DNA of 32,000 nt, taken from contig NC_003902.1 in NCBI RefSeq assembly GCF_000007145.1, positions 757,436 to 789,435 on the forward strand, read 5' to 3'. Position numbers and translations under genes: made by a program. Positions 4,831 through 32,000 of this stretch are shown here, piece after piece. Numbering within the stretch: position 1 is the stretch's first letter; each line of letters begins with the position of its first letter. Source of the DNA: Xanthomonas campestris pv. campestris str. ATCC 33913. GTDB taxonomy: Bacteria; Pseudomonadota; Gammaproteobacteria; Xanthomonadales; Xanthomonadaceae. The notes under the pieces are model-generated. The model was not told the origin of the DNA. It saw nothing but the letters and a program-made list of their open reading frames with translations, and made no database searches.

Positions 4831-6255
4831 TCAAGCACCAAGTGTCATCGGCGACAGCGGCACGGCGCTAAAGGATGGCCATCCCATCGCCCGCATCCAG
4901 GCACGCAAAAACGCGATCCAGCGCAGCAGCCAGCGCAGGTTGTAGCCGGCGGCGCAGCCGAGTACGTGCAGCGCATCGCCTTGTGCACCTTTCAGCCTGC
5001 AGCGACGCAACCTGCAGTCGTCTTTCAGATGTCCGATCACCGGTTCCACCGCCTGCCGTCGTTTGATCCAGCGCCATTGCCGTCGCGTCAGCGTCTTGGC
5101 CTTGCCACGATGGAGCACCTGCACGCCATCGACCTCGCGCCCGCGATAGCCCAGGTCCACGATCGCCACCGTCGGTTCTACGCTCAGATCCTGCAGCAAC
5201 CCGCGTGTCTGCTCCAGCTGCTCGGCCAAGGTGTCGCCGTCGTACGGGTTGCCCGGGAAGCTACGCGCACCCACGACCAATCCCTTGCAGGCGGTGACCG
5301 CAATGCCGACCTTGACGCCGAATTCGTACGCTTGACGCGCCTTGCCCTTACCGATGCATTCCACTTCCGGGGCATGCAATGCGTACAGTTTTTGTTTGTC
5401 CTTCGGACGCTGCGTGTACAGCCGTTGCGCACGTTCCAGCCAGACCGCGATGCGCTCGCGCACGCCGGGTTCCACCTGGTCCAGCTTGCGCGCGATATCG
5501 CGCAACACCCGCCCCAAGACCGTGCGTTGACGTCGCAGCACGCGCTGCATGCGCTTGAACTGGCGTGCATGCGCATAGCGGCCCGCCTTGCGGCTCAGGG
5601 CCGGACCTTGCCGTGCGTAGCTCTGCCGCAACCCGATGCCGTAACGCTTGGCCAGCAGCACCAGTTTCTTGCGTGCCACCTCCAGCAACCGACTATCGGT
5701 CGGATAGGCAATCGCCTTTTCCTGCACCGTGGTGTCCACGATCACCCGCGACAACTCGCGTGCGTCCACCGCCTGCATGGCATGTGCAGCGTTGATGGTG
5801 TGTGCCAGCAACTCTTCCATCCCCGCTTCGTCAAGCCGCTGACGCCAGCGCGTCAGCGAGCTGGCATCGCACGGCAAGCGCGTCTGGAACACGACCTCGC
5901 CAGTGAAAAACTGCCAATACGGATTTTCCAGCCAACGCTCGCACACCGCCTCATCGGACAGGTCGTAGGCGTGTTTGAGGTAGAGCAAACCGGCGATCAG
6001 CCGCACCGGCAATGCCGGCCGACCGCCACCAGCCTGGGTGGCCGGCAAGCGCGATGAAAGTGCTTGCTCCAACGCCGTCCACGGCATCCGTTGGCTCAGC
6101 TGCGCCAGCGGATGCCGCAGATCGATCTGGTTCTCCAGGCGCGAACGAAACAACTCCTCGGCAGGCATGTGCTCGGCAGCAGGACGGCGTGTATGCATGA
6201 GTGGAAATTGCCAGAAACCAGCCTTCAGCGTAGCGAAAACTGGTAGTTCTGGCAC
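4831..6255 (-). CDS. IS5/IS1182-superfamily DDE transposase
   Basis: 474 aa. InsH-like N-terminal region (LRHPLAQLSQRMPWTALEQAL, LPVRLIAGLLYLKHAYDLSDEAV...W.ENPYWQFF). C-terminal DDE region (VIVDTTVQEKAIAYPTD ... VDLGYRG ... VEPVIGHLK). The true start may be an internal Met (MHTRR.. or MPAEE..). Confidence 0.9.
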   Translation of the reverse strand: MPELPVFATLKAGFWQFPLMHTRRPAAEHMPAEELFRSRLENQIDLRHPLAQLSQRMPWTALEQALSSRLPATQAGGGRPALPVRLIAGLLYLKHAYDLSDEAVCERWLENPYWQFFTGEVVFQTRLPCDASSLTRWRQRLDEAGMEELLAHTINAAHAMQAVDARELSRVIVDTTVQEKAIAYPTDSRLLEVARKKLVLLAKRYGIGLRQSYARQGPALSRKAGRYAHARQFKRMQRVLRRQRTVLGRVLRDIARKLDQVEPGVRERIAVWLERAQRLYTQRPKDKQKLYALHAPEVECIGKGKARQAYEFGVKVGIAVTACKGLVVGARSFPGNPYDGDTLAEQLEQTRGLLQDLSVEPTVAIVDLGYRGREVDGVQVLHRGKAKTLTRRQWRWIKRRQAVEPVIGHLKDDCRLRRCRLKGAQGDALHVLGCAAGYNLRWLLRWIAFLRAWMRAMGWPSFSAVPLSPMTLGA

Positions 6256-6410: not shown

Positions 6411-6448
6411 GTGCGTTCATCCAGCGGGAGGATATTGCCCGGGTTTGA

Positions 6449-8143
6449 TCAGTTCCCAAGCCGGGAGAATAACCCGGCCTTATCCAGGTTTTCTGCCGAT
6501 TCGGCGGTGCGGGCGCGATATTCAAAAGTCCCGGCCGCCAATCCACGCTCGGACACCACCACGCGGTGCGGAACGCCCAGCAGTTCCATATCGGCAAACA
6601 TGGCGCCCGGTCGCAGGCCGCGATCGTCCAACGCCGCGTCGATGCCGGCGGCGATCAATTCCTCCAGCAAGTCACCGGCCGCGGCAGCCACCTGCGCGTC
6701 CTGCTTGGGGTTGATCACGCACACCACCACCTTCCACGGCGCCATCGGCGCGGGCCAGACAATGCCGGCGTCGTCGTGGTTCTGTTCGATTGCCGCCGCC
6801 ACGATGCGCGAGATGCCAATGCCGTAGCAGCCCATCTTCATCACCGCAGCCTTGCCGTTTTCATCCAGCACGGTGGCCTGCAGCGCTTCGGCGTATTTAC
6901 TGCCGAGCTGGAACACATGCCCCACTTCGATGCCGCGGGTCAGGCGCAGCTCGCCGCCGTCGCTGGCCCGGTCGCCGTCCACGACATTGCGCACGTCGGC
7001 CACGGTCTCCGGTTCGGGCAGGTCGCGGCCCCAGTTGACCCCGGTCAGGTGCACGCCTACCGCGTTGGCACCGACCACGAAATCAGCCATGGCCGCGACG
7101 TCGCGATCGGCAATAATGCGAATCGGCTGGGCCGGCTGCACCGGGCCCAGGAAGCCGGGCTCGCTGCCCAGGTGCTGACGGATCTCGCTTTCATTGGCCA
7201 GCCGGTAGTCGGCCATGCCGGCGACCTTGGCCAGCTTGAGCTCGTTGACGGCGTGATCGCCACGCACCAGCACCAGCACGAAGCCGGCGGTGGTCATCAC
7301 CGCGATCGACTTCACCGTGCGCTGCAGCGGCAGGCCCAGCAACTGGGCCACGTCTTCGCAGGTCTTCTGGGTAGGTGTGTCCACGCGCTGCAGGGTCTCG
7401 CCGGCAGCCGGGCGCGGTGCGGGCAGGGCGGCGCTGGCGGTTTCCACATTGGCTGCGTAGTCCGAGCCGGTGGAGAACGCCAGCGAGTCCTCGCCCGATT
7501 CGGCGATGACATGGAATTCCTGCGAGGCATCGCCGCCGATTGCGCCGGAGTCGGCCTGCACCGCGCGGAACTCCAGCCCCAGCCGGGTAAAGATGCGGAT
7601 ATAGGCGGCTCGCATGTTGTCGTACTCGCGCGCCATGTCCGCATCGGTGAGATGGAACGAATAGGCGTCCTTCATCAGGAACTCGCGTGCACGCATCACG
7701 CCGAAACGCGGGCGGATTTCATCGCGGAACTTGGTCTGGATCTGGTAGAAATTCAGCGGCAGCTGCTTGTAGCTGTTGATTTCCTGGCGCGCGAACTCGG
7801 CCGCGGCTTCTTCGGCGGTCGGGGTGTAGCAGAACTCCTGTTCCTTGCGGTCCTTGATCTTCAGCAATTGCCCGCCGAACTTTTCCCAGCGGCCGGTCGC
7901 GTCCCACAGCTCGCGCGGCTGGATGGTGGGGAACAGCACTTCCACCGCCCCGGCGCGGTTCATTTCCTCGCGCACGATGGCCTCGACCTTGCGCAGCACG
8001 CGCAAGCCCAGCGGCGACCAGGTGTACAGCCCGGAGGCCAGCTTGCGGATCATGCCCGCGCGCAGCATCAGACGGTGGCTGACCAGCTCGGCGTCGGCCG
8101 GGGTTTCCTTGGTGGTGTGCAGGTGGAACTGGGAAAGACGCAT
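6449..8143 (-). CDS. proS: Proline--tRNA ligase
   Basis: 564 aa. [42 protein letters not shown]..., with class II aaRS motifs and the bacterial-type editing insertion. Full-length. Confidence 0.97.
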
Positions 8144-10507: not shown

Positions 10508-11208
10508 CCGATCGTGTGGCGCGCAGGCTTTGCGACGCCCTGGTGTGACTTGACTGATTGAAGGCTGGCCGCGCCGCTGCGTGGCGGGCGCGTATGTGCT
10601 GACGCTCGGCACCATCATCGAACGCGCATGCAGGTGTACGCGCTTGCACGGCATGCGTGTGTGCATGCGTCACAGCTGACGAAGCGAACGCAACGTGCGT
10701 GCGGCCACTTCTGCTCATCATGCGACGCACGCGCTGATTGATACCCCGCGGTATTGGACGTGTGTGCGCATGATCGATCACTGCGCTGCACATCGCACGG
10801 AAGTGCACGTCACCGGCAATGCGTTTTGCTGCGTTTGTGCGGTCTCCAGCGCTCAGTGATGTGTCCTGATCGCGCTGCTTGATGTGCCCTCTCACATCCG
10901 CGATCACACATCGTGCTTGCGCTGCTGCACGCCACCACGCGCTGCACGTGATGTTGCATTGCAGTGTCCTCGCTGCTGTCTCCGCGTGTCTGCGTCATCG
11001 CGTTTTGTCTTCTCTTGAATGTCCCGCAAGCGTTTGCGTGACAGCGCGTGCACATCGACACATCGCCTAGATACAACCGATTGCGATGCTCCTAGTATCC
11101 GTGTCGCGGAAACTGAAAAGTACACAGATGAAAAGTACGTTCCGCGCGCTCTAGTCGAGCGATGTGCCGCTGCGCGGTGCGTCGAACTTATCCGAGGGAG
11201 ACATCAAG

Positions 11209-12342
11209 ATGAAGCCGAAATTCTCAACGGCGGCCGCCGCGTCGCTGTTTGTCGGGTCGTTGCTGGTGATTGGCGTTGCCAGCGCCGATCCTGCACTGGA
11301 AGTTGCCACGACAGGCTGGGCCACGCAGAACGGTGGCACCAAGGGCGGCTCCAAAGCCGCGGCCGCCAATATCTACACGGTCAAGAACGCTGCCGAGCTG
11401 AAAGCTGCGTTGAAAGCCAGTGTTGGCAGCAACGGACGCATCATCAAGATCAGCGGCGTGATCGACGTCAGCGAAGGCAAGGCCTACAGCACCACGGCCG
11501 ACATGAAGAGCCGCGCGCGTCTGGACATTCCCACCAAGACCACCTTGATCGGCATCACCAGCAACGCGGAAATCCGCGAAGGCTACATGTACGTCAAGGC
11601 GAACGACGTCATCATCCGCAACATCACCATCGAAAATCCGTGGGATCCGCAGCCGGTCTGGGATCCGGACGATGGCAGCGCGGGCAACTGGAACTCCGAA
11701 TACGACGGGTTGACCGTGGAAGGCGCCAGCAACGTGTGGGTGGACCACGTGACCTTCACCGATGGCCGCCGTACCGATGATCAGAACGGCACCGCCAACG
11801 GCCGCCCGAAGCAACACCACGATGGCGCGATGGACGTCAAGAAAGGCGCCAACTACGTGACCATTTCGTACTCGGTGTTCAAGCTGCACGAGAAGAACGA
11901 TTTGATCGGCTCCAGCGACAGCGCCTCCAGCACCGACAGCGGCAAGCTCAAGGTCACCATCCACAACACCATGTTCCAGGACATCGCCGCACGTGCGCCG
12001 CGTGTGCGCTTCGGTCAGGTGCACCTGTACAACAACTACCACGTCGGCAGCACCAGCAATAAGGTGTATCCGTTCTCGCATGCGCATGGTGTCGGCAAGG
12101 AATCGAAGATTTTTTCCGAGCGCAACGCATTCGAGATCAGTGGCGTGAGCAGCTGCGACAAGATCGCTGCCGACTACGGCGGCAGCGTGTACCGCGATCA
12201 GGGCTCGTTGCTCAACGGCAAGGCGCTTTCTTGCTCGTGGAATACCAACATCGGCTGGACGCCGCCGTATACCTACAACCTGCTGTCGGCCGACAAGGTC
12301 GCCGCCGACGTCAAGGCAAAAGCAGGTGCCGGAAAGCTGTAA
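11209..12342 (+). CDS. pel: Secreted pectate lyase, PL1 family (copy 1)
   Basis: 377 aa. GAGGGAG RBS. Signal peptide [28 protein letters not shown]1 hallmarks NVWVDHVTF and [17 protein letters not shown]. Confidence 0.92.
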
Positions 12343-12383: not shown

Positions 12384-12579
12384 ATGGGTTGCAGCTATGC
12401 CGAGGGTGCACGTGCAGCATAGCGAAAATATACTTTTAAATAATTTACATAACCGATAGCATCGGTCGTGTCCGCTAGGGGACTGGCCGATTCGGCCTGG
12501 GCGGATGCAGTGCTGTCACGGGGAGCGCGTCGCGCATGCGACGTGTCATTGCATCACTCATTCAAGAGAATTCAACACC

Positions 12580-13722
12580 ATGTCGACTGCATCGACAGTT
12601 GTGGGTCGTACGGTTGTGGGCGTCGTTCTGGGCGCTGCGTTGTTGTCGGGCACCGCGTATGCGGCAGACCCTGCACTGGAAGTGGCCACCACCGGCTGGG
12701 CCACCCAGAACGGCGGCACCAAGGGAGGCTCCAAGGCGGCGGCGGCAGACATTTACACCGTCACCAACGCGGCCCAGCTCAAGGCGGCCTTGAAGGCCAA
12801 GGCCGGCAGCAACGGCCGCATCATCAAGATCAAGGGTGTCATCGACATCAGCGAAGGCAAGGCCTACACCAAGACCTCGGACATGAAGAGCCGTGGTCGC
12901 CTGGATGTGCCGACCAAGACCAGCCTGATCGGCGTCGGCACCAATGCCGAAATCCGCGAAGGCTTTTTCTACGTCAAGGCCAACGACGTCATTGTGCGCA
13001 ATCTCACCATCGAGAATCCGTGGGATCCGGAGCCGGTGTGGGATGCCGACGACGGCGATGCAGGCAACTGGAACTCCGAATACGACGGGTTGACCGTGGA
13101 AGGCGCCAGCAACGTGTGGGTGGACCATGTGACCTTCACCGACGGCCGCCGCACCGATGATCAGAACGGCACCGCCAACGGCCGCCCCAAGCAGCATCAC
13201 GATGGTGCGATGGACGTCAAGAAGGGCGCCAACTACGTGACCATTTCGTATTCGGTGTTCAAGTCGCACGAGAAGAACAGCCTGATCGGCTCCAGCGACA
13301 GTGCATCGAGCACCGACTCCGGCAAGCTCAAGGTCACCATCCACAACACCTTGTTCCAGGACATTGCCGCACGTGCGCCGCGCGTACGCTTCGGCCAGGT
13401 GCATCTGTACAACAACTACCACCTCGGCAGCACCAGCAATAAGGTGTACCCGTTCTCGCATGCGCATGGCGTGGGCAAGGAATCGAAGATCTTCTCCGAG
13501 AACAATGCCTTCGACATCAGCGGCGTGAGCAGCTGCACCAAGATTGCTGGCGACTACAAGGGCAGCGTGTACCGTGACCAGGGCTCGTTGATCAACGGCA
13601 AGGCACTGACCTGCAGCTGGAACAGCAACATCGGCTGGAAGCCGCCGTATACCTACAACATCCTGCCGGCCAACAAGGTGGCAGCGGACGTCAAGGCCAA
13701 GGCTGGCGCCGGCAAGCTGTAA
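12580..13722 (+). CDS. pel: Secreted pectate lyase, PL1 family (copy 2, tandem paralog)
   Basis: 380 aa. Signal peptide [28 protein letters not shown]. The mature region is collinear with and highly similar to copy 1, with the same PL1 motifs. Confidence 0.92.
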
Positions 13723-13802: not shown

Positions 13803-14267
13803 CGTTGTGTGCAATGGCGTGTGTGCTGTGCCGATGGCCTGCGTGGCAGGCCGCGCAGCGTGGGTGACAAGGCCGACCCGGATGCTCGTTTAACGACGCG
13901 CACGGCCTGGCGATTCAGTCGGCGCTGCTGTCGGAGCACGACGTGTTCCGGATCGGTGGGACCCGTGGTTGCAGGGATGGAGTGCAGGGCATCGGTGGCC
14001 GCACCGATCTCGATCGCGTGGAGCAGATCAACGGCGCGCGGATGGTGTGCATGCTCACTACCGCGATCGGTTGGAAGCCGCGTGATGCGTACAGTCGGTT
14101 GCCGAGCACGGCCGTGGCTGCGGCGGTGCTGGCGTATAGGGGCGCCGGAGGACCTTAGACCGGCTAACAAAACGTCGCGTCCGCCTGGCGCCTGCGCAGT
14201 CGTTGTGATCGCTGATTTTAACCGGTAAGTGCCGCAGCCCAATGGCTGCGGACAGTGCATGCATCAA

Positions 14268-14293
14268 ACGCCTGCGCCATCTGGCGCAGGCGT
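14268..14293 (-). terminator. Probable valS terminator hairpin
   Basis: acgcctgcgcc-atct-ggcgcaggcgt: an 11-bp stem 8 nt downstream of the valS stop. Minus-strand tail is ttgatgcatg. Confidence 0.5.
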
Positions 14294-14300
14294 CGTTGCT

Positions 14301-17135
<2,835 letters not shown>

Positions 17136-17248
17136 GGTGGAATCAAAAGGAGACTGGAAATTTGAATGATCGAAGCGGCGCTAGTTAGCACCAGAATGCA
17201 GTTTTTTTCGTTTTTCAGAGATGGGAAGTAAGGTAATTGGAAAATCTG

Positions 17249-17914
17249 TCAGTGATTCATTGCGCCATAAGCTTGTGTCAGCTTACGCAGTCCATCGCGA
17301 AACTTACAGAAGCTTGGAGACTGATTGAGCTCTACATCCATCTTGGGGCAGATATGGTCGGCCCATGCATGCTTGACCTCGCCAGGTAGCGGCCAGCCAG
17401 CTTTCATGATGGCTGCAGATCCGCCAGGGTGAACTGCGTCCGCCAAGAGCTCCCAGGTTCCACAGATGCTGTCCTGCTGGTAGCCCGAAAGTATTTCTTT
17501 TCTTGCTTTTGGATAGGCAGCGAGCACAGCTGGCTTGTCACCCAGGAACCAGGATTCCATTTCCTCGATCGCGAGGCGAAAAAGAGTCTTCGGCGCCGGA
17601 TTGCACCGCTGCAGCACGGCTTTCAAATCGGCCAGGAAAGTAGCGCAGTCGCGTCGATCACTATCTAAGACAACAACTACTGCGTCTACGCCTTGCGTCC
17701 TGCCGTACCCGCTGAGGAGTCTGGGAAGCTGGTTCAATAATGCGCGCTTCGCAGGGTCTGCAGTAGTCGAAAGGCCGGCTGGTAGTCGTCCGATTCCTTT
17801 GTAGGGGTGGATGCGCCACGTATGCGGTTCTCCATGGAGCCCGATGACGGCTGGCAGCAGCATGCTCACCACCTTGGCGCCAGAACTGTCTTCCACAAGG
17901 ACTTCAATATGCAT
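17249..17914 (-). CDS. DUF4276-like small protein with TOPRIM-type acidic signature (putative nuclease effector)
   Basis: 221 aa from ATG 17914, 2 nt after the ATPase stop. MHIEVLVEDSSG (Glu8), VVVVLDSDRRD (Asp84-x-Asp86), AIEEMESWFLGD. No signal peptide or TM segment. Confidence 0.7.
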   Translation of the reverse strand: MHIEVLVEDSSGAKVVSMLLPAVIGLHGEPHTWRIHPYKGIGRLPAGLSTTADPAKRALLNQLPRLLSGYGRTQGVDAVVVVLDSDRRDCATFLADLKAVLQRCNPAPKTLFRLAIEEMESWFLGDKPAVLAAYPKARKEILSGYQQDSICGTWELLADAVHPGGSAAIMKAGWPLPGEVKHAWADHICPKMDVELNQSPSFCKFRDGLRKLTQAYGAMNH

Positions 17915-17916
17915 AC

Positions 17917-19149
17917 TTATTTTGTATCCAAGTAGTCGCCATACCAAAGTCCACCGAGGGGCAATCCTTCTTCTACGAGATTACGCACCAAATCGATATC
18001 GGACGCCCGGCAAATGGTGGAAAATCCATTTTTTCCTTTCTCGAGTATCCAGACTTCCTTGGTTGAAAGTGCATCTACGAAATAGGGCTGGTGGGTGGTG
18101 ACGAAGATCTGTGGGGCGTTCTTCTTTCCCGTGGCATGGCTTCGCAGTTCACTCGCAAGTGAATCGAGTAATCGATGGTAAAGACCGTTCTCGGGCTCCT
18201 CGATGCAGATAAATGGTGGTGGTTCAGGATCTTCCATCAAGAGCAGGTATGCAAATATTTTCAGCGTTCCATCCGACATCTGGCCAGCATAGAAGGGATC
18301 GTTGAAGGCACCATCGTTGAATTGAAGAAGGACGCGTTTGTCTTGCGTCACAGTTGTTCTGATGCTGTGCACGCCAGGAATTTTTGCCGCGATACGGTCA
18401 AGGATTGTTTTGAAACGTTCTTTATGTTCGCGTTCCATATATTGAACGACGTTTCCGATGTTTTCGCCATGCACATCGAGATGTCGCTGAGCCCCGGCCG
18501 AAGGTATGGAGCGTGCAGAGTCCGGGTGGAAATAGGAGAGATGCCAGCCTTTCAGGAAGTCGCGGAAACGCTTGATGCGCGGATGCTCTTTCAATGTGCC
18601 AAGAGTTGCAATTCCCAACTGGCGCAAATCAGTGAGCTCCACATCCTCTTGAGCGCGATCTTCTTCGCCGCTGGATGTTTCCACCGCTTCTTCGCCAGCC
18701 CATACCTTTCCAACGCCGTGATGCAGGCGTAAGAATGGGTAGGGGCGGCCGTGTTTCTGTCCTTTGCGACGTTGCTTGAGAACCTCTGACTCGACGAATG
18801 GTCGCCCGCTGCTGTCCAGATTGATGGCCAGCTCGTAGGTGATGGGGCGTTCGCCCTTGGCTTCTCGGTAATAGATATCGAACCGTATGGATTCCTCAGT
18901 TCCCAAGGAGCGCATGCGCTCAAAGCCTCCGCGTTGTTTATCGTCGCAGGCCGATTCCACGTCCTTCGATAAGCAGTCGGCGACAAAGCCGAAGGCATCG
19001 AATAGCGTGCTTTTTCCGACACCGTTCTTGCCGATGACAACGGTGAAAGGAGTCAGCGGATCACCCTGCTGTTCAGCAGATAGGCGTCCAAGCGTGATAT
19101 CGCGCAGCGCGCGATAGTTGCGGACACGAAAGCCTTCGATTAATGCCAT
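17917..19149 (-). CDS. ABC/SMC-type (AAA_15/AAA_21-like) ATPase
   Basis: 410 aa. Walker A GKNGVGKST (aa 40-48), signature-like QMSDGT (aa 290-295), Walker B FICIEEPE (aa 313-320), H-loop TTHQ (aa 351-354). About 240 aa are inserted between the Walker A and signature motifs. Confidence 0.85.
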   Translation of the reverse strand: MALIEGFRVRNYRALRDITLGRLSAEQQGDPLTPFTVVIGKNGVGKSTLFDAFGFVADCLSKDVESACDDKQRGGFERMRSLGTEESIRFDIYYREAKGERPITYELAINLDSSGRPFVESEVLKQRRKGQKHGRPYPFLRLHHGVGKVWAGEEAVETSSGEEDRAQEDVELTDLRQLGIATLGTLKEHPRIKRFRDFLKGWHLSYFHPDSARSIPSAGAQRHLDVHGENIGNVVQYMEREHKERFKTILDRIAAKIPGVHSIRTTVTQDKRVLLQFNDGAFNDPFYAGQMSDGTLKIFAYLLLMEDPEPPPFICIEEPENGLYHRLLDSLASELRSHATGKKNAPQIFVTTHQPYFVDALSTKEVWILEKGKNGFSTICRASDIDLVRNLVEEGLPLGGLWYGDYLDTK

Positions 19150-19158
19150 ATCCTTCCC

Positions 19159-19584
19159 CTACATGTCGTATTTCGTGAGTTCCAGGCCCAGGGCCTTGTA
19201 CTGCTTCCAGCGTTCGCGCAGCGGTTCGCGGGCGGCGGGGTCGGCGGGCACCACTTCCAGCACGCGGTCGCAGGCGCCCAGGTACGGGTCGTCGCGCAGG
19301 TTGATCACCAGCGGGCGCGAGGGCGCGGCGAACTCGGGCGTTGCGATCAGCACCGGCGCCAGTTCGTCTTCCTCATCGGTGCCGGCGATCTGGTGCGGCA
19401 CATAGGCTTCGTCGTCGAACGCCCACAACAGGTCATCCAGCGCCTCGGCCTGTGCGGCATCGCGCGCCAGGATCAGCGTGGACAGGTTGGCATCGTTGGC
19501 CTTGCGCGCCAGCTCGCAGACCAGCCGCAGCGGTTCGTCGAGGAAGCGCGGTTTGGCGATCAGGTAAAAGTCGGCACGGGGCAT
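19159..19584 (-). CDS. holC: DNA polymerase III chi subunit
   Basis: 141 aa. MPRADFYLIAKPRFLDEPLRLVCELARKA...LWAFDDEAYVPHQ. Located immediately downstream of pepA, as in E. coli. Confidence 0.9.
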   Translation of the reverse strand: MPRADFYLIAKPRFLDEPLRLVCELARKANDANLSTLILARDAAQAEALDDLLWAFDDEAYVPHQIAGTDEEDELAPVLIATPEFAAPSRPLVINLRDDPYLGACDRVLEVVPADPAAREPLRERWKQYKALGLELTKYDM

Positions 19585-19586
19585 CA

Positions 19587-19707
19587 GGGCAGGGAATCGG
19601 GAGAGGAGAGTTGGGAATGGTCACGGCACCGCCGCGACCTCGAAGGTCGCGGCGGTGCCTGAAAGGAAAGGGCTTTCACGATTCCCTATTCCCGATTTTC
19701 AATTCCC
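19587..19707. repeat. Palindromic heptamer-repeat element (GGGAATC ... GATTCCC type) with central perfect hairpin
   Basis: Left arm gggcagggaatcgggagaggagagttgggaatgg. Centre ggcaccgccgcgacc-tcgaa-ggtcgcggcggtgcc, a 15-bp perfect stem at 19625-19659. Right arm attccctattcccgattttcaattccc, which overlaps the pepA stop and its last two codons. Confidence 0.65.
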
Positions 19708-21180
19708 ACCTTCGGCGCGGTCCAGCAACCACTGGGTCAGCAGGCCGACCGGGCGGCCGGTGGCCATGCCGCGCTTGCCTTCGTCGCTGGCCACGCCGGC
19801 GATGTCCAGATGCGCCCAGCGCTGGTTTTCGGTGAAGCGCGACAGGAAGCAGCCGGCGGTGATCGCGCCACCCCAGCGGCCGCCGATGTTGTAGACGTCG
19901 GCGAAGGTGGAATCCAGCAGGCCCTGGTATTCGTCCCACAGCGGCAGGCGCCAGGCGCGGTCGAACACGTGCTCGCCGGCGGCCAGCAGTTCATTGGCCA
20001 GATCGTCGTGCTTGCTCATCAATCCGGCGGTCTGGTGGCCCAGGGCCACCATGCAGGCGCCGGTCAGCGTGGCCACGTCCACCAGCGCTTCGGGGTTGAA
20101 GCGCTCGGCGTAGGTCAGCGCATCGCACAGGATCAGGCGGCCTTCGGCGTCGGTGTTGCCGACCTCGATGGTCTTGCCGGACATGCTGGTGATCACGTCC
20201 GAGGGACGATAGGCATTGCCGTCGATGGCGTTTTCCACCGCCGGCACCACCACCACCAGGTTGATCGGCAGCTCGGCCTTGACCGTGGCCACGAAGGTGC
20301 CGATGACGTTGGCGCCGCCGCACATGTCGTACTTCATTTCCTCGATGCCGCCCTGCGTCTTGAGGTTGACGCCACCGGTATCGAAGGTGATGCCCTTGCC
20401 GACCAGCACGTAGGGGCGCGCCTCGCCGCCGCCGTTCCACTTCAGCACGATCAGGCGCGGGCGGTTGGCCGAGCCACGCGCCACCGACAACAGCGAGCCC
20501 ATGCCCAGCGCTTCCATCTGCTGCTCGTCCAGGATCTCGGCCTCGGCGCCGGGGAACTTGCCGGCGAAGGCGGCCGCGGTCTCGGCCAGGTAGGCCGGGG
20601 TGCAGTAGTTCGGCGGCAGGTTGCCCAGCTCGCGGGCGAACTCCACGCCTTCGGCGGTGGCGATACCCACGGCCAGGGCGCGGGCGTCGTCGCCGGCGAT
20701 CGCCAGGGTGGTCAGGCCGGTGTCGTCGACCTTCTTCTTGCCCAGCGTGGCGGTGTAGCGGTAGGCGGCATGGTCGCTGACGATGACGGCCTGGCGGATG
20801 TTCCAGGCTGCGTCGCGTGCCTTGACGGGCAGTTCGGTCAGGGTGAGCAGGGCGGTGCCGATCGGGCCGGTCTTCAATGCGCGGGCCGCATCGCCGATGG
20901 CCTTGAGGTAGGGCGCCACGCCAAACTTGGCGGCATCGCCCAGGCCCACCACCAGCACGCGCGGGGCCTGCACGCCGGGCAGGTCATGCACCAGGCTGGT
21001 GGTGCCGGTCTTGGTGGCCACATCGCCCCGTGCCACCAGCGCCGTCAGGCGGCCCTGGCTGGCGCTGTCCAGCGCCTGGGCAGCGGGCGAGAGGGTCTTG
21101 TCGGCGAACGCGCCAACCACGATGCAGTCGACGTGGGCGCTTGCCGGCGCGTCTTGGTTCAGGGTGAATTGCAGGGCCAT
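19699..21180 (-). CDS. pepA: Leucyl aminopeptidase
   Basis: 493 aa. M17 family signature [14 protein letters not shown] and [10 protein letters not shown]. Confidence 0.97.
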
Positions 21181-24567: not shown

Positions 24568-25539
24568 ATGTCTGCCAGCAGTCCCGCCGAACGCCGCCAA
24601 CGTGCCCAGCAACTGCCGCCCCTGCGGGCGGAGGACGATCAGGCGATCCAGCGCTTCCTGGATCGGTTGTGGGCCGAACAGGGCGTGGCGCGCCAGACCC
24701 TGGACAGCTATCGGCGCGATCTGGAAGGGCTGGCGCGATGGCGCGATGGCGCCGGCGGTGGCCTGCAGGGCGCCGACCGCAGCGCGCTATTCGACTATCT
24801 GCGCTGGCGCACCGAGGCGCGCTACGCGCCGCGCAGCAATGCGCGCCTGCTCTCGACCCTGCGCGGCTTCTACGCGCTGTGCCTGCGCGATGGCGTGCGC
24901 AGCGACGACCCTACCGCGCTGCTGGATCCGCCGCGCTTGCCGCGCTCGCTGCCCAAGGCCCTGACCGAAAGCCAGATCGATGCGCTGCTGGCGGCCCCGG
25001 AGATCGGCACGCCGCTGGGCCTGCGCGATCGCGCCATGCTCGAACTCATGTATGCGGCCGGCCTGCGCGTCAGCGAGCTGGTCACGCTGCCGGCCGTGGC
25101 GATCAACCTGCGCCAGGGCGTGCTGCGGGTCACCGGCAAGGGCAGCAAGGAACGGCTGGTGCCGCTGGGCGAGGAGTCCCAGCACTGGCTGGAACGTTAT
25201 CTGGAGACCGCGCGGCCCACGTTGTCCGAACGCAAGGCGGTGCCAGCGGTGGACGGGCAGGTCCCCCTGTTCATCGACGCCGCGCGCCGGCCGCTGAGCC
25301 GCCAGCAGTTCTGGGGCCTGGTCAAACGCTATGCAGCGGTTGCCGGCATCGACCCGGACACGGTCAGCCCGCATGGTTTGCGGCACAGTTTTGCCACCCA
25401 TCTGCTCAATCACGGCGCCGACCTGCGCGCGCTGCAGATGCTGCTGGGGCACAGTTCGCTCTCCACCACCCAGATCTACACGCTGGTGGCGCGCCAGCAT
25501 CTGCAGACCTTGCACGCCCGGCATCATCCGCGCGGCTGA
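24568..25539 (+). CDS. xerD: Site-specific tyrosine recombinase XerD
   Basis: 323 aa. Catalytic [12 protein letters not shown] and [14 protein letters not shown]. The C-terminal LHARHHPRG matches the XerD-type C-terminus. Followed by dsbC, as in E. coli. Confidence 0.92.
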
Positions 25540-26916: not shown

Positions 26917-29900
26917 ATGATGGTCCTCGAGGGCGCTTCCGCCCTTTCGCCGTTCCGCCGCGCTCGGCTCGAAACCCGCCTGCAAACGCTCGTCCCCGCG
27001 CTGCGTCTCACTGGCGCCTGGCACGTGTACTTCATCCGTGCCGATGCCGGGCGCACGCCCGACCAGGCCACCTTGCAGCGCATCCTGCAGGCCGAGCCGG
27101 CGCCTGCGCCGCGCGATGAGGCTGCCTCTTCGCGCTACGTGGTGCCACGGCTCGGCACGCTGTCGCCGTGGTCGAGCAAGGCCACCGAGCTGATGCGCGG
27201 AGCCGGGCAGCCGATCCAGCGCGTGGAGCGCGGCACCCGGATCGATCTGGCCGGGTGGCCGGAAGGCGAGGCCGATCAGGCCGCGGTGGCCAAGCTGTTG
27301 CACGACCCGATGACGCAATCGTTGCTCGGCTCGGCCGCAGCGGCCGAAGCGCTGTTCAACGTGCCCGATCCCGGCCAGCTGGAACGCATCCCGCTGGATG
27401 CGCTGGAACAGGCCAATGGCGATCTGGGCCTGGCACTGGCGCAGGACGAGATCGACTACCTGCGCGAGCGCTTTGCCGCGCTCGGCCGCGACCCGGCCGA
27501 CGTCGAACTGATGATGTTCGCGCAGGCCAACTCCGAGCACTGCCGGCACAAGATCTTCAACGCCAGCTGGACCATCGACGGCAAGCCGCAGGAGCGCTCG
27601 CTGTTCCGGATGATCAAGCACACCCACCAGCAGACCCCGCAGCACACCTTGTCGGCCTATAGCGACAACGCGGCGGTGGTGGAAGGCGTGCCGGCGGCGC
27701 GGTTCCGCCCCGATCCGGCCACCGGCGAATACCGCAGCGAAGCGGTGGTGCCCTCGGCCTTCGCCATCAAGGTGGAAACCCATAACCATCCCACCGCGAT
27801 TGCGCCGTTCCCGGGCGCGGCCACCGGTGCCGGCGGCGAGATCCGCGACGAAGGTGCCACTGGCCGCGGTGGCAAGCCCAAGGCCGGCCTGACCGGGTTT
27901 TCGGTGTCGCATCTGCGCATCCCGACCTTGCCGCAGCCGTGGGAAGCGCCGCGCGCGCTGAATCCGCGCATGGCGCCGGCGCTGGACATCATGCTCGACG
28001 GCCCGCTCGGCGGCGCGGCATTCAACAACGAGTTCGGCCGGCCGAACCTGCTTGGCTACTTCCGCAGTTTTGAGCTGGCCGAAGGCCAGGGCCTGACCCG
28101 CGCCTACGACAAGCCGATCATGCTGGCCGGCGGCCTGGGCGCGATCGACCGCAACCAGGTCGAAAAGCTGCGCCTGCAACCGGGCGATGCGGTGATCGTG
28201 CTGGGTGGCCCGGCGATGCTGATCGGTCTGGGCGGCGGCGCCGCCAGTTCGGTGGCCGCCGGTGACAGCGCCGAGGCGCTGGACTTTGCCAGCGTGCAGC
28301 GCGAGAACCCGGAGATGGAACGCCGCTGCCAGGAGGTCATCGACCACTGCGTGGCACTGGGCACCGATAACCCGATCCGCTGGTTCCACGACGTGGGCGC
28401 CGGTGGCCTGTCCAACGCGATCCCCGAGTTGCTGCACGACTCCGGCGTGGGCGGGGTGATCGACCTGGCCAGGGTGCCGAGCGACGACCCGTCGCTGTCG
28501 CCGCTGGAGTTGTGGTGCAACGAATCGCAGGAACGCTACGTGCTCGGCGTGCCGCAGGCGCGCCTGGACGAATTCGCCGCGATCTGCGCACGCGAACGCT
28601 GCCCGTTCGCCGCCGTCGGCGTGGCCACGGCCGAGGAACGGCTGGTGGTGGGGTATGGCGTTTTTGACGCAGCGAATCGGGAATCGGGAATCGGGAATCG
28701 CAACAGCGCGTTGCCGGCTGCCGAGGCCGCTTCCGCCCATTCCCTATTCCCCACTCCCGATTCTCCGCTCCCGATCAACCTGCCCATGGACGTGCTGTTC
28801 GGCAAGGCGCCGAAAATGCACCGCGATGCCGTGCATCCGGCGGCGCCGCAGTGGCCGGTGCTGCAGACCGGGGCGCTGGATCTGCAGGAGGCCGGGTTGC
28901 GCGTGTTGGCGCATCCGACCGTGGCGTCCAAGAGCTTTCTGGTCACCATCGGCGATCGCAGCGTGGGCGGGCTGACCGCGCGTGAACAGATGATCGGGCC
29001 GTGGCAGCTGCCGTTGGCCGATTGCGCGATCACGCTGGCCGGGTTCGAGACCTTCGATGGCGAAGCGATGTCGATTGGCGAGCGCACGCCGCTGGCGCTG
29101 CTGAACGCCGCGGCCTCGGCGCGCATGGCGGTAGGCGAGGCGATCACCAACCTGTGTGCGGCGCCGGTGCAGACGCTGGACAGCATCAAGCTTTCCGCCA
29201 ACTGGATGGCTGCCGCCGGACACGCCGGCGAAGACGCCTTGCTGTACGACGCAGTGCGCGCGGTCGGCATGGAACTGTGCCCGGCGCTGGAGCTCAGCAT
29301 CCCGGTGGGCAAGGACTCGCTGTCGATGCAGGCGCAGTGGCAGGTCGGGAATGGAGAATCGGGAATCGGGAATGGTGAAACGCCAGCACCGTCCGCTTCT
29401 GCCATTCCCGATTCCCGACTCCCGATTCCCGGTGAAACGCTGAAAAGCGTTTCACCGGTATCGTTGATCATCAGTGCATTTGCGCCCGTCAGCGATGTGC
29501 GTACGCAGCTCACTCCGTTGCTGCAGCGCGAGGATGAGAGCGAGCTGTGGTTGATCGGCCTGGGTGGCGGCAAGCAGCGTCTGGGTGGGTCGGTGCTGGC
29601 GCAGGTGTATGCCGATGACAGTGCGTTGCCGGCCTTCGGTGGTGAAACACCGGACCTGGATGACCCGCAGCGGCTGCGCCAGTTCTTTGAACTGATCCGC
29701 GATGCACGCGAGGGTGGATTGTTGCTGGCGTATCACGATCGCAGCGATGGCGGTGCGTTTGCCGCGCTGTGCGAAATGGCGTTTGCCTCGCGCCAGGGCC
29801 TGGATATCACGCTCGACGCCTGGGGCGATGATGCCTTCCGCAGCCTGTTCAACGAAGAATTGGGCGCGGTGGTGCAGATCGCCAATGAAGACCGCGCCGC

Positions 29901-30963
29901 GTTTGCCGATCTGGTCGAGCGGCATGCACTGACCGAATGCGCGCAACGCATCGCACGCCCCACCGGCACCCCGCGCGTGCGTGTCAGCGGCCAGGGCCGG
30001 GTGTTGGCCGAATGGCGCTGGGAAGCGCTGTTCGATGCCTGGTGGTCGGTGACGCACGCCATGCAGAAGTTGCGCGACAACCCGGACAGTGCCGACGAAG
30101 AACGCGCGGTGGCGCGCAACTTCCAGGCGCCGGGGTTGCGCCCGAAGCTGGTGTTCGACCCGTCCGAGGATGTGGCCGCGCCATTCGTGGCGACCGGTGC
30201 ACGGCCGAAGGTGGCGATCCTGCGCGAGCAGGGCGTCAACGGCCAGATCGAGATGGCCTACAACTTCGAGCGTGCCGGGTTCCGTGCGTTCGACGTGCAC
30301 ATGAGCGACCTGATCGAAGGCCGCGTGGACCTGGCGCAGTTTGCAGGATTTGCGGCTTGCGGCGGCTTCAGCTACGGCGATGTGCTGGGCGCCGGCCGCG
30401 GTTGGGCCACCTCGATCCTGGAGCGTGCGGCACTGCGCGATGCGTTTGCCGCATTCTTTGCGCGCAGCGATACCTTTGCGCTGGGCGTGTGCAACGGTTG
30501 CCAGATGCTGAGCCAGCTCAAGGACATCATTCCCGGTGCCGAGCACTGGCCGCGCTTCCTGCGCAACCGCAGCGAGCAGTTCGAAGCACGCACGGCGCTG
30601 CTGGAAGTGGTGGAGTCGCCGTCGATCCTGCTGCGGGGCATGGCCGGCTCGCGCATTCCGGTGGCAGTGGCGCATGGCGAAGGCCGCGCCGAATTCGACA
30701 CGGCGGTGGATCAGGCCGCGGCGCGCGTGGCACTGCGCTTCATCGACGGTGACGGCGCGGTGGCTAGTCAGTACCCGCTCAATCCGAACGGGTCGCCCGA
30801 CGGCATCACCGGCCTGACCAGCACCGATGGGCGCGCCACCATCTTGATGCCGCATCCGGAGCGCACGCCGCGCTCGGTCAATCTGAGCTGGCATCCGGCG
30901 GGCTGGGGCGAGGACTCGCCGTGGCTGCGCATGTTCCGCAATGCGCGGGTGTGGTGTGGTTGA
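26917..30963 (+). CDS. purL: Phosphoribosylformylglycinamidine synthase (large single-chain PurL)
   Basis: 1348 aa. Starts [14 protein letters not shown]. Contains the AIR-synthase-like duplicated core and a C-terminal glutamine amidotransferase domain (GVCNGCQM ... HGEG ... PHPER). Confidence 0.98.
28674..28776. repeat. Palindromic heptamer-repeat element inside purL (copy A, degenerate right arm)
   Basis: (gaatcgg)x3 + gaatcgc at 28674-28701, a 37-nt spacer, then attccct/attcccc/actcccg/attctcc/gctcccg at 28739-28776. Translated in frame as [10 protein letters not shown]...[12 protein letters not shown]. Confidence 0.65.
29347..29456. repeat. Palindromic heptamer-repeat element inside purL (copy B)
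   Basis: Perfect 15-bp inverted repeat gggaatcgggaatgg (29361-29375) / ccattcccgattccc (29402-29416). A second perfect hairpin ggtgaaacgc-tgaaaa-gcgtttcacc lies at 29431-29456. Translated in frame as [11 protein letters not shown]...[19 protein letters not shown]. Confidence 0.7.
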
Positions 30964-30971
30964 GTGATGTG

Positions 30972-31048
30972 ACGCGGCATCGGGTGATGCCGCGTTGAGA
31001 GCGTCAACGAACGGCCGTGTGCAGCAATGCACACGGCCGTTGTTGTTT
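30972..31048 (+). terminator. purL terminator region (two hairpins)
   Basis: acgcggcatc-gggt-gatgccgcgt (30972-30995). Then aacggccgtgtgca-gcaa-tgcacacggccgtt with an extended stem, followed by gttgtttgg (31005-31048). Confidence 0.7.
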
Positions 31049-32000
31049 GGGTGATCGGATCGCACGAAAGCTGCGCGCCCGTCGCTGCAATGCGCGCTGA
31101 TGCCGCCGCAGTTGGCGAGCATCGGCTGTGGGGGGGCGGGGCGCGTACCGCCGAGCTGGCGGGCACCGATTGGACGCGGACGCTACGCCAACATCCACGG
31201 GAGAGGAGGCTCTCCCAGCGTGGCATCGCAATGTTGTTGGCCCGAATCAGGCTCACATGGATGCAGCGGTGCTGGATGAGCGGCGCCTACCAAGGATTGG
31301 GTGCGATTTGGCTGCTGCACGTCAGCTGCGCAGATGCAGGGGGGGGCTGAGTCAGTGCCCTGCACCTGCTCAATCCAGCGTGGCCGGTGGTCGCGTGTCT
31401 GCATCGCATGTTTCTAGAATCTAAAGAAATACCTGATTTTCTATTAACTTAAATGCTGATTGGTATTTATCAAAAAATAATATATTTGCATGCGTGAAGT
31501 TAATCTCATCCGGATCTTGCTTTCAAATGGATTCTGTCGGCGTTGCGAGTTATAAAATTTCTGCCATATTTTTTCGGCATATCTATCTTTTTGCTGCTTT
31601 GCGCTGTCTATTCCGTCGACAAAAGGTGGGCGATTGCGTTTCACTAAACCCTAAGGGCGGCTTGAGCTCACGGGCGTGGTGATTGTTTTCTTCATGCCGG
31701 ACCAATCGCAGTCAGGCCTCAATGAAGCAAACTGAGTTGAATGACGGTCGTGAGCGGCGCGTTTATGGCGGAATGGGTCGCATGCCTGCACGTTGAAAAT
31801 ACGCGGGCGATCGGCACCGTTGCTCGGCACCAGCCAGACCGTGCGCCTCAGCGCGCCGCGTGCCGGCACCTACATCGTCAAACTCGATGGCGCCAGCTTC
31901 GACGGGGTCAGCCTGCTCGCGCGTCAGTGATCCGACACGCCGTGCTGCGCAACGCGCACGGCGACGATTTGTTGGCGCCCGCGACGCATCCGGGCCCGGC

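Follow-up and report, generated by a model that had tools for sequence, protein, structure and literature searches.

The two-gene HEC-01 module, a candidate anti-phage system, as a standalone copy between holC and valS of Xanthomonas campestris pv. campestris

A 32,000-nt stretch of the Xanthomonas campestris pv. campestris str. ATCC 33913 genome (assembly GCF_000007145.1, contig NC_003902.1, positions 757,436 to 789,435, forward strand) was analyzed around a low-GC islet at 17136-19158; the whole stretch is referred to as the window, and positions are counted from its first letter. A copy of the two-gene HEC-01 module stands alone in this islet, which holds two adjacent minus-strand genes, one for an ABC-type ATPase (HEC-01A, 410 aa) and one for a DUF4276/TOPRIM-like protein (HEC-01B, 221 aa). 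The pair was acquired horizontally, has a foreign composition and is present in some strains and absent from others. It probably acts as an anti-phage system of the abortive-infection type, a reading put forward with some reserve and weighed below against its rivals.

Assignment to HEC-01 was made with PADLOC profile hidden Markov models (HMMs). HEC-01A was matched by model PDLC04182 (E = 1.8e-191, 634.5 bits; residues 1-409 against positions 1-402 of 406) and HEC-01B by model PDLC04205 (E = 5.7e-97, 321.6 bits; residues 1-211, model of 213 positions), so that the PADLOC check proposed in a first-pass annotation, made from the sequence alone, returned full-length matches for both proteins. HEC-01B models were also matched by all 76 relatives of the small protein. 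The two genes are adjacent on the same strand (minus strand, 2-nt gap), as HEC-01 prescribes. The pair is HEC-01, a catalogued candidate system and not an undescribed one, and because the PADLOC entry already captures it, the islet adds an instance rather than a new system. HEC-01 (Hma-embedded candidate 1) was described as a TOPRIM-like protein paired with an ABC ATPase and embedded in Hma systems (Payne et al., 10.1101/2024.01.29.577857); HEC-01B was likened structurally to BpOLD in the same preprint (10.1101/2024.01.29.577857). For a cold-seep representative, protection of E. coli B from one or more of T7, T5 and T4 has been reported (10.1101/2024.09.26.614923). The first-pass description of the pair as uncharacterized and free of experimental work had to be withdrawn: HEC-01 has been tested in two studies, with mixed results, and the related Mad3 and Mad4 are needed for defense by MADS.

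The large protein is an ABC-type ATPase with intact catalytic motifs. It was matched above the gathering score (GA) by both Pfam families that had been expected for it, AAA_21 (9.7e-37, 128.1 bits, GA 27) and AAA_15 (2e-15, 57.7 bits, GA 32.1). All of the motifs quoted at first pass were located: Walker A GKNGVGKST at residues 40-48 (K46), a signature-like MSDGT at 291-295, Walker B FICIEEPE with the catalytic Glu at 313-320, and the H-loop TTHQ at 351-354. About 242 aa separate Walker A from the signature, in keeping with the insert of roughly 240 aa described earlier. The identical protein is encoded on 491 X. campestris contigs.

HEC-01B was compared with Pfam DUF4276 (PF14103) and scored 23.1 bits (E = 9.7e-5, profile 1-191 of 192), below the gathering score of 30.2, whereas 75 of the 76 relatives matched the family at E <= 0.01 (best 1.3e-14). 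As its relatives match, HEC-01B is a divergent member by homology and not by the curated cut-off; the DUF4276 label given at first pass holds for the relatives and falls short on the protein's own score. OLD-like_TOPRIM, RloB and RT-Toprim models were also matched by a few of the relatives. Conservation was scored over the 76 relatives, down to 32% identity. E8, E120, W122 and K181 are invariant, and D84, D86 and E118 are conserved in at least 90%; the Glu...DxD pattern noticed earlier is present in the window as E8 and D84-S-D86. DUF4276 has been placed in the Toprim superfamily, with Mad4 named as a homologue (PMC12065111).

The fold of HEC-01B was predicted with AlphaFold2 (AF2) from the diverse 76-sequence alignment (pLDDT, predicted local distance difference test, 96.5; pTM, predicted template modeling score, 0.92). 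This model replaced an earlier one built from 30 sequences at 69-91% identity, which had a pLDDT of 60 and gave meaningless Foldseek matches. Predicted strands span residues 2-7, 31-37, 78-84 and 110-115 with helices between them, giving the chain order beta-alpha-beta-alpha-beta-alpha-beta, and the C-terminal half is helical. E8 follows closely on strand 1, D84xD86 sits where strand 3 ends, and E118/E120 come after strand 4. In the predicted structure, motif and topology match the TOPRIM pattern of a Glu after strand 1 and a DxD after strand 3. The placement of E8, DxD and Glu agrees with the TOPRIM arrangement described for DUF4276 (PMC12065111), and OLD homologues carry matching 'hydrophobic strand-E-G' and 'hydrophobic strand-DxD' motifs. 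The earlier TOPRIM-like call is borne out by motif and topology in the AF2 model; fold and profile searches, detailed below, were not significant. PDB sequence searches with the single proteins and with the HEC-01B profile gave nothing informative.

The pair is an insertion, since holC adjoins valS in nearly all related genomes. One genome per species was scanned, and holC was found in 80 Lysobacteraceae loci. In 79 of these valS follows holC directly across a gap of 65-250 bp; X. axonopodis DSM 3585 is the sole carrier among the species representatives, with a junction identical to that of the window. These empty sites confirm the insertion into the pepA-holC-valS block that had been suspected from gene order. 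The islet has 52.7% GC and a GC content at third codon positions (GC3) of 0.56-0.58, against 64.8% GC for the whole window and 64-69% GC with GC3 of 0.85-0.91 for the flanking genes (valS, holC, pepA). The contrast pointed out at first pass is real (52.7% against 64.8%), but the accompanying figure of roughly 47-50% is reached by some 300-nt sub-windows of the islet only. Conservation throughout the genus at this site with native-like composition, the outcome named beforehand as speaking against an acquired module, was not observed.

At the site itself, the native holC-valS spacer (~210 bp) is wholly replaced in the window. Synonymous differences occur in the last holC codons (CTC ACG AAA ... 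TAG in the window, CTG ACC AAG ... TGA at empty sites), and valS codons 3-4 read TQ in the window and TT at empty sites. The last ~20 nt of the valS-side spacer (..TTGATTCCACCATG) are common to all occupied Xanthomonas alleles. A ..CGGTTCCACCATG-like motif, present in each of these alleles just upstream of valS, is missing from empty sites. Direct repeats or terminal inverted repeats flanking the islet were not found, nor was a tRNA gene in the window or a mobility gene linked to the islet. The Xer-type recombinase gene at 24568-25539 was considered as such a gene and rejected, being a conserved neighbor in all Xanthomonas loci; an insertion sequence (IS) transposase was rejected as well, lying 11 kb away. 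That IS-type transposase gene (DUF772 and DDE_Tnp_1; 4831-6255, minus strand) coincides with a local GC dip, adjoins proS (6449-8143) and is unrelated to the islet. Empty holC-valS spacers (loci L001-L013, about 6424-6640) carry G-rich repeats GGGATTGGGGAGTTGGGATTGGGGATTCG at the start and the complement ..CAATCCCGAATCCCGAA.. at the end; this inverted pair, resembling repetitive extragenic palindromes, brackets about 150 bp of the empty-site spacer and is absent from the window.

The pair fills this slot too in X. oryzae, X. translucens, X. sacchari and one further Xanthomonas, which has the same ATPase as X. fragariae. X. nasturtii strains likewise carry the ATPase; the slot is empty in the genomes that represent the species X. 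translucens and X. nasturtii. Xanthomonas ATPases formed one clade in a neighbor-joining tree, with Burkholderia as sister group. Normalized identity at four-fold degenerate sites was 0.09-0.49 for the cassette and 0.50-0.77 for pepA/holC/valS, with X. axonopodis as the exception, a comparison made imperfect by codon-usage selection on the flanks. Cassettes in the same slot of different Xanthomonas species range in GC3 from 0.44 to 0.79. The single Xanthomonas clade, the shared valS-side motif and a cassette more diverged than its flanks together suggest one old insertion, which would have persisted as a presence/absence polymorphism, with recombination through the conserved flanks as its means of movement.

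Over longer distances, HEC-01A retains 85-91% identity among Xanthomonas, Burkholderia, Variovorax, Pseudomonas and Desulfobulbus; the window ATPase and those of Pseudomonas, Variovorax, Desulfobulbus and X. translucens are 85-89% identical. HEC-01B shares 72-81% identity with its counterparts in Beta-, Gamma- and Deltaproteobacteria. Four-fold degenerate sites of the ATPase gene are saturated between those genera (31-35% identical), which together with the high protein identity points to an ancient split and to very strong purifying selection.

Within X. campestris, a W174* allele of the HEC-01B gene was found, caused by a single G-to-A change (TGG to TGA; codon at 17393 in the window). It was seen in the DNA of CP155990.1 (L186:3020-3022), where the other 320 aligned nt are identical. 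The truncation leaves 173 aa and removes 48 residues including the invariant K181. On X. campestris contigs the truncated form was counted at least 169 times and the intact form 557 times; further gene calls begin at an internal Met, either M18 (204 aa, 66 contigs) or later. The allele in the window is intact.

Gene neighborhoods were compared across the family. In 96 of 99 loci the order is ATPase gene, then DUF4276 gene, and in 95 of these the gap between high-scoring segment pairs is 4-11 nt. Upstream context was counted over the 72 loci that had 1 kb or more of sequence ahead of the pair. In 28 of them (39%) a gene for an N6/N4 DNA methylase of 930-1030 aa (for example L137:2868-5957) lies 3-47 bp upstream on the same strand, and in such loci a UvrD-type or SNF2/ResIII helicase gene usually comes after the pair. 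Other neighbors in the family are an MmeI-type restriction-modification (RM) gene, Wadjet genes and a YhcG nuclease gene. About 60% of the loci have no adjacent methylase or helicase, including all Xanthomonas, Burkholderia, Variovorax and Dyella copies examined. These standalone copies adjoin holC/valS (Xanthomonas), ychF (Burkholderia), glnS (Variovorax), serS (Dyella) or trpA/trpB (P. stutzeri), and gyrB, ssb or thiC in metagenomic contigs. Identity to the window ATPase is 78-100% for standalone and 78-90% for methylase-embedded copies. Aminoacyl-tRNA synthetase genes recur beside the pair, with valS upstream in a metagenomic contig (L164:2765-7868), glnS in Variovorax (L083:4751-8645) and serS in Dyella (L098:4599-8913). 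A general link to such genes was rejected, as synthetases make up 2 of 89 neighbor clusters (96 loci); the adjacency is probably coincidental, or due to a leaning toward slots next to core genes.

From these data the pair is, on balance, taken to be a PARIS/OLD-like anti-phage system of the abortive-infection type, in which a sensor ATPase would control a TOPRIM-type nuclease. An oligomer of the ATPase would act as sensor and scaffold and would hold the metal-dependent nuclease in check. Release or activation of the nuclease would follow from a trigger of phage origin in combination with the binding or hydrolysis of ATP; the enzyme would then cut nucleic acid (tRNA or DNA) and so stop the infection. 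The mechanistic model is PARIS, in which a trigger frees the nuclease and tRNA is then cleaved (PMC11464382). Trigger, substrate and the defense phenotype in Xanthomonas are all putative. The reading draws on HEC-01 membership, strict gene linkage, intact ATPase motifs and TOPRIM-like features, and further on methylase/helicase embedding of relatives, MADS genetics, the one positive phage test and the foreign, strain-variable nature of the cassette.

Several results weigh against this reading. A HEC-01 representative expressed in E. coli gave no protection against any phage tried (10.1101/2024.01.29.577857), and neither of the tested representatives is known to be in the PDLC04182/PDLC04205 sub-clade. 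Foldseek of the AF2 model against the PDB gave a best E of 0.021 with generic flavodoxin-like folds on top and no significant TOPRIM match; M. tuberculosis topoisomerase I appeared in that list only at E = 0.2. Against BFVD the best E was 0.009, again without a significant TOPRIM match, and the weak matches included an RloB-like protein (prob 0.82), topoisomerases and a DnaG-like primase. Profile alignment of HEC-01B by hhalign to a 5-sequence OLD TOPRIM alignment, a very shallow template, gave P = 0.015 with a probability of 2.9% over 42 columns. Across P2 Old and the shallow OLD alignment, P was about 0.015-0.024 and not significant; the aligned columns include the LVED/LVEG strand-1 motif, which falls on P2 Old 395-399. 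The OLD TOPRIM alignment was built from phage records, the search for homologues of the P2 Old C-terminus having given 3 fragments only, and tblastn of plasmids during its construction found nothing. Most standalone copies sit amid housekeeping genes and not in defense islands. The clade was found in 13 of 72,556 plasmid records, none above 61% identity, and in 3 phage records, a near absence. Constraint as strong as that on the ATPase is unusual for a phage sensor, and the W174* allele is common in X. campestris.

Other explanations were weighed as well. The pair might be the orphaned nuclease arm of a methylase-helicase system, either needing a methylase encoded elsewhere or functionless and decaying. 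The 28 of 72 loci directly behind an N6/N4 methylase, with a helicase after the pair, are as such an origin would predict, as are the W174* and N-terminally shortened gene calls in X. campestris. In MADS, mad5 could be deleted only when mad2 or mad3 was deleted too, which ties the Mad3 ATPase to self-toxicity. Yet standalone ATPases, about 60% of the loci, are as conserved as embedded ones, the window ATPase scores 105 bits on the MAD3 model against a cut-off of 420, and the window carries an intact allele that recurs identically on about 500 contigs. Orphaning is regarded as unlikely. The very strong purifying selection (85-91% identity with saturated synonymous sites) and the recurrent replication and translation neighbors (holC/valS, glnS, serS, ychF, gyrB, ssb) would suit a non-immune surveillance or repair module for nucleic acids, analogous to RecF (ABC-type ATPase) and RecR (TOPRIM) and acting on a conserved cellular DNA or RNA target. 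The chromosomal rather than plasmid- or phage-borne distribution of the clade and the negative E. coli phage test point the same way. Such a role is very unlikely for a patchy, strain-variable pair carried by 1 of 80 species representatives: its composition is foreign, many of its loci lie within methylase/helicase systems, its PADLOC and Pfam relatives are all defense-type ATPases, the synthetase adjacency is not general (2 of 89 clusters), and the widespread W174* allele would not be tolerable in a housekeeping function.

A selfish, toxin-antitoxin-like (TA-like) addiction cassette, in which loss of the ATPase would unleash the nuclease to no benefit of the host, has only a very slim chance of being correct. 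It would account for the tight coupling across 2 nt and for spread into conserved intergenic slots without mobility genes or repeats, and Pfam annotates AAA_21 as 'putative AbiEii toxin, Type IV TA system'. Identity of 85-90% across proteobacterial classes, on the other hand, is rare for pure addiction modules, the truncated partner is the nuclease and not the ATPase while the cassette is retained, and HEC-01 tests gave no hint of toxicity. Defense by a sensor ATPase and a TOPRIM-type nuclease is retained as the preferred reading. Another possibility is that the sub-clade is no ordinary, fast-evolving phage sensor: under unusual constraint, it would watch over an invariant target in the cell (such as a methylation state, an intermediate of replication or repair, or tRNA) instead of a variable phage protein. 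On that view the Xanthomonas copy would be an old presence/absence polymorphism in a fixed slot, with alleles that predate species splits. This refinement, prompted by the 85-91% identity, the saturated synonymous sites and the methylase-adjacent or core-gene settings, is considered improbable.

The occupation of the slot in several Xanthomonas species, the proportion of methylase-embedded loci, the constraint on the ATPase and the W174* allele are new here. Experimental results for HEC-01 conflict, and no mechanism has been given so far. X. campestris offers a natural test bed, with an intact pair (about 500 contigs), the W174* form (at least 169 contigs) and an empty slot in related strains and species; these three natural states make the function of HEC-01, and any need for a methylase partner, directly testable in the native host.

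Features of the locus are collected in Table 1. The two minus-strand open reading frames (ORFs) reported at first pass were read there with the same TAAgtATG junction. The 221 aa of HEC-01B run from the ATG; starting at a TTG that lies 11 codons upstream would lengthen the protein to 232 aa, but homologues begin at MHIE. The 2-nt gap is consistent with translational coupling of HEC-01A and HEC-01B. GGGGAAGGAT in the 9-nt junction is a likely ribosome-binding site for HEC-01A, and since the junction is too short for a promoter, transcription of the pair probably continues from pepA-holC. The spacers around the pair showed no sigma-70 or terminator consensus, and stable RNA structure in the 113-nt spacer was not significant (z = -0.06).

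Table 1. Coordinates of the HEC-01 pair and its flanks in the window.
Feature	Position	Strand	Evidence
valS (valyl-tRNA synthetase), flank	14301..17135	-	
AT-rich spacer, 113 nt, 41% GC, HEC-01B stop to valS ATG	17136..17248	-	
HEC-01B, 221-aa DUF4276/TOPRIM-like protein, putative nuclease effector, intact allele	17249..17914	-	
Intergenic gap HEC-01A/HEC-01B, 2 nt, TAAgtATG	17915..17916	-	
HEC-01A, 410-aa ABC-type (AAA_21/AAA_15) ATPase, putative sensor or scaffold subunit	17917..19149	-	
Junction of holC stop (TAG) and ATPase ATG, 9 nt	19150..19158	-	sequence read
holC (DNA polymerase III chi), flank	19159..19584	-	Pfam DNA_pol3_chi 3.1e-34
pepA	19699-21180	-	

Elsewhere in the window, lptF and lptG are divergent to the pepA-holC-pair-valS block. 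Tandem pectate lyase genes (11164-12342 and 12505-13722, plus strand; 87% protein identity, GC 0.57-0.62) lie downstream of valS. A 978-aa ORF at 14229-17165 (plus strand), antisense to valS, is a high-GC artefact. GC drops to 0.58 at 31001-32000, past purL (26917-30963).

The pair was compared with known systems that join such an ATPase to a TOPRIM protein. OLD, Gabija GajA and the retron Eco8 effector (class 1-3 OLD) likewise combine an ABC ATPase with a TOPRIM domain bearing Glu and DxD, but are fused in one polypeptide, whereas the window has two ORFs with a stop codon between them; fused ATPase-Toprim models match only at 6e-12, and the similarity by hhalign (P = 0.015) and by Foldseek (E at least 0.009) is not significant. 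A split OLD-like arrangement was observed in Rhizobium phage RHph_Y3_1 (L184:1204-2902), where a 409-aa ATPase is followed after 1 nt by a 155-aa 'TOPRIM domain-containing protein'; the split architecture of the islet thereby has a phage-borne counterpart. AbiL has an AAA_15/21 ATPase (AbiLi) and a TOPRIM-superfamily RloB protein (AbiLii) in two genes. AbiLi models match the window ATPase at 2e-24, much more weakly than HEC-01A, and the small protein has no RloB match, with one of its 76 relatives matching at E = 6.6e-4.

PARIS (AriA ABC ATPase and AriB DUF4435 TOPRIM nuclease) shares the split logic of a sensor ATPase and a TOPRIM effector, and its ATPase belongs to the same AAA_15/21 radiation. 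The window small protein differs in having no AriB/DUF4435 match and a different helical C-terminal half, and the AriA match of the ATPase (1.9e-33, 115 bits against 634 for HEC-01A) has the same extent as that of the generic AAA_21. The kinship in logic with PARIS and AbiL drawn at first pass agrees with the published grouping of MADS3-4 and AbiL with PARIS as ABC-ATPase and TOPRIM systems (PMC11464382). In MADS of P. aeruginosa, Mad3-Mad4 are an AAA_15/21 ATPase followed by a DUF4276 protein, as in the window; both are needed for full defense, which mad3 and mad4 deletions weaken. The window ATPase matched mad3 models (PADLOC 2.3e-21; NCBIfam 4.7e-30), but its score on the MAD3 equivalog NF047739 (105.1 bits) stays below the cut-off of 420, and the flanks are holC and valS with no mad1, mad2 or mad5-8 nearby. 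HEC-01 was originally described as embedded behind a methylase, as are many relatives of the window clade, whereas the window copy stands alone between holC and valS without an Hma or RM partner; it has the same two genes, an ABC ATPase gene and one for a TOPRIM-like DUF4276 protein, with full-length HMM matches for both.

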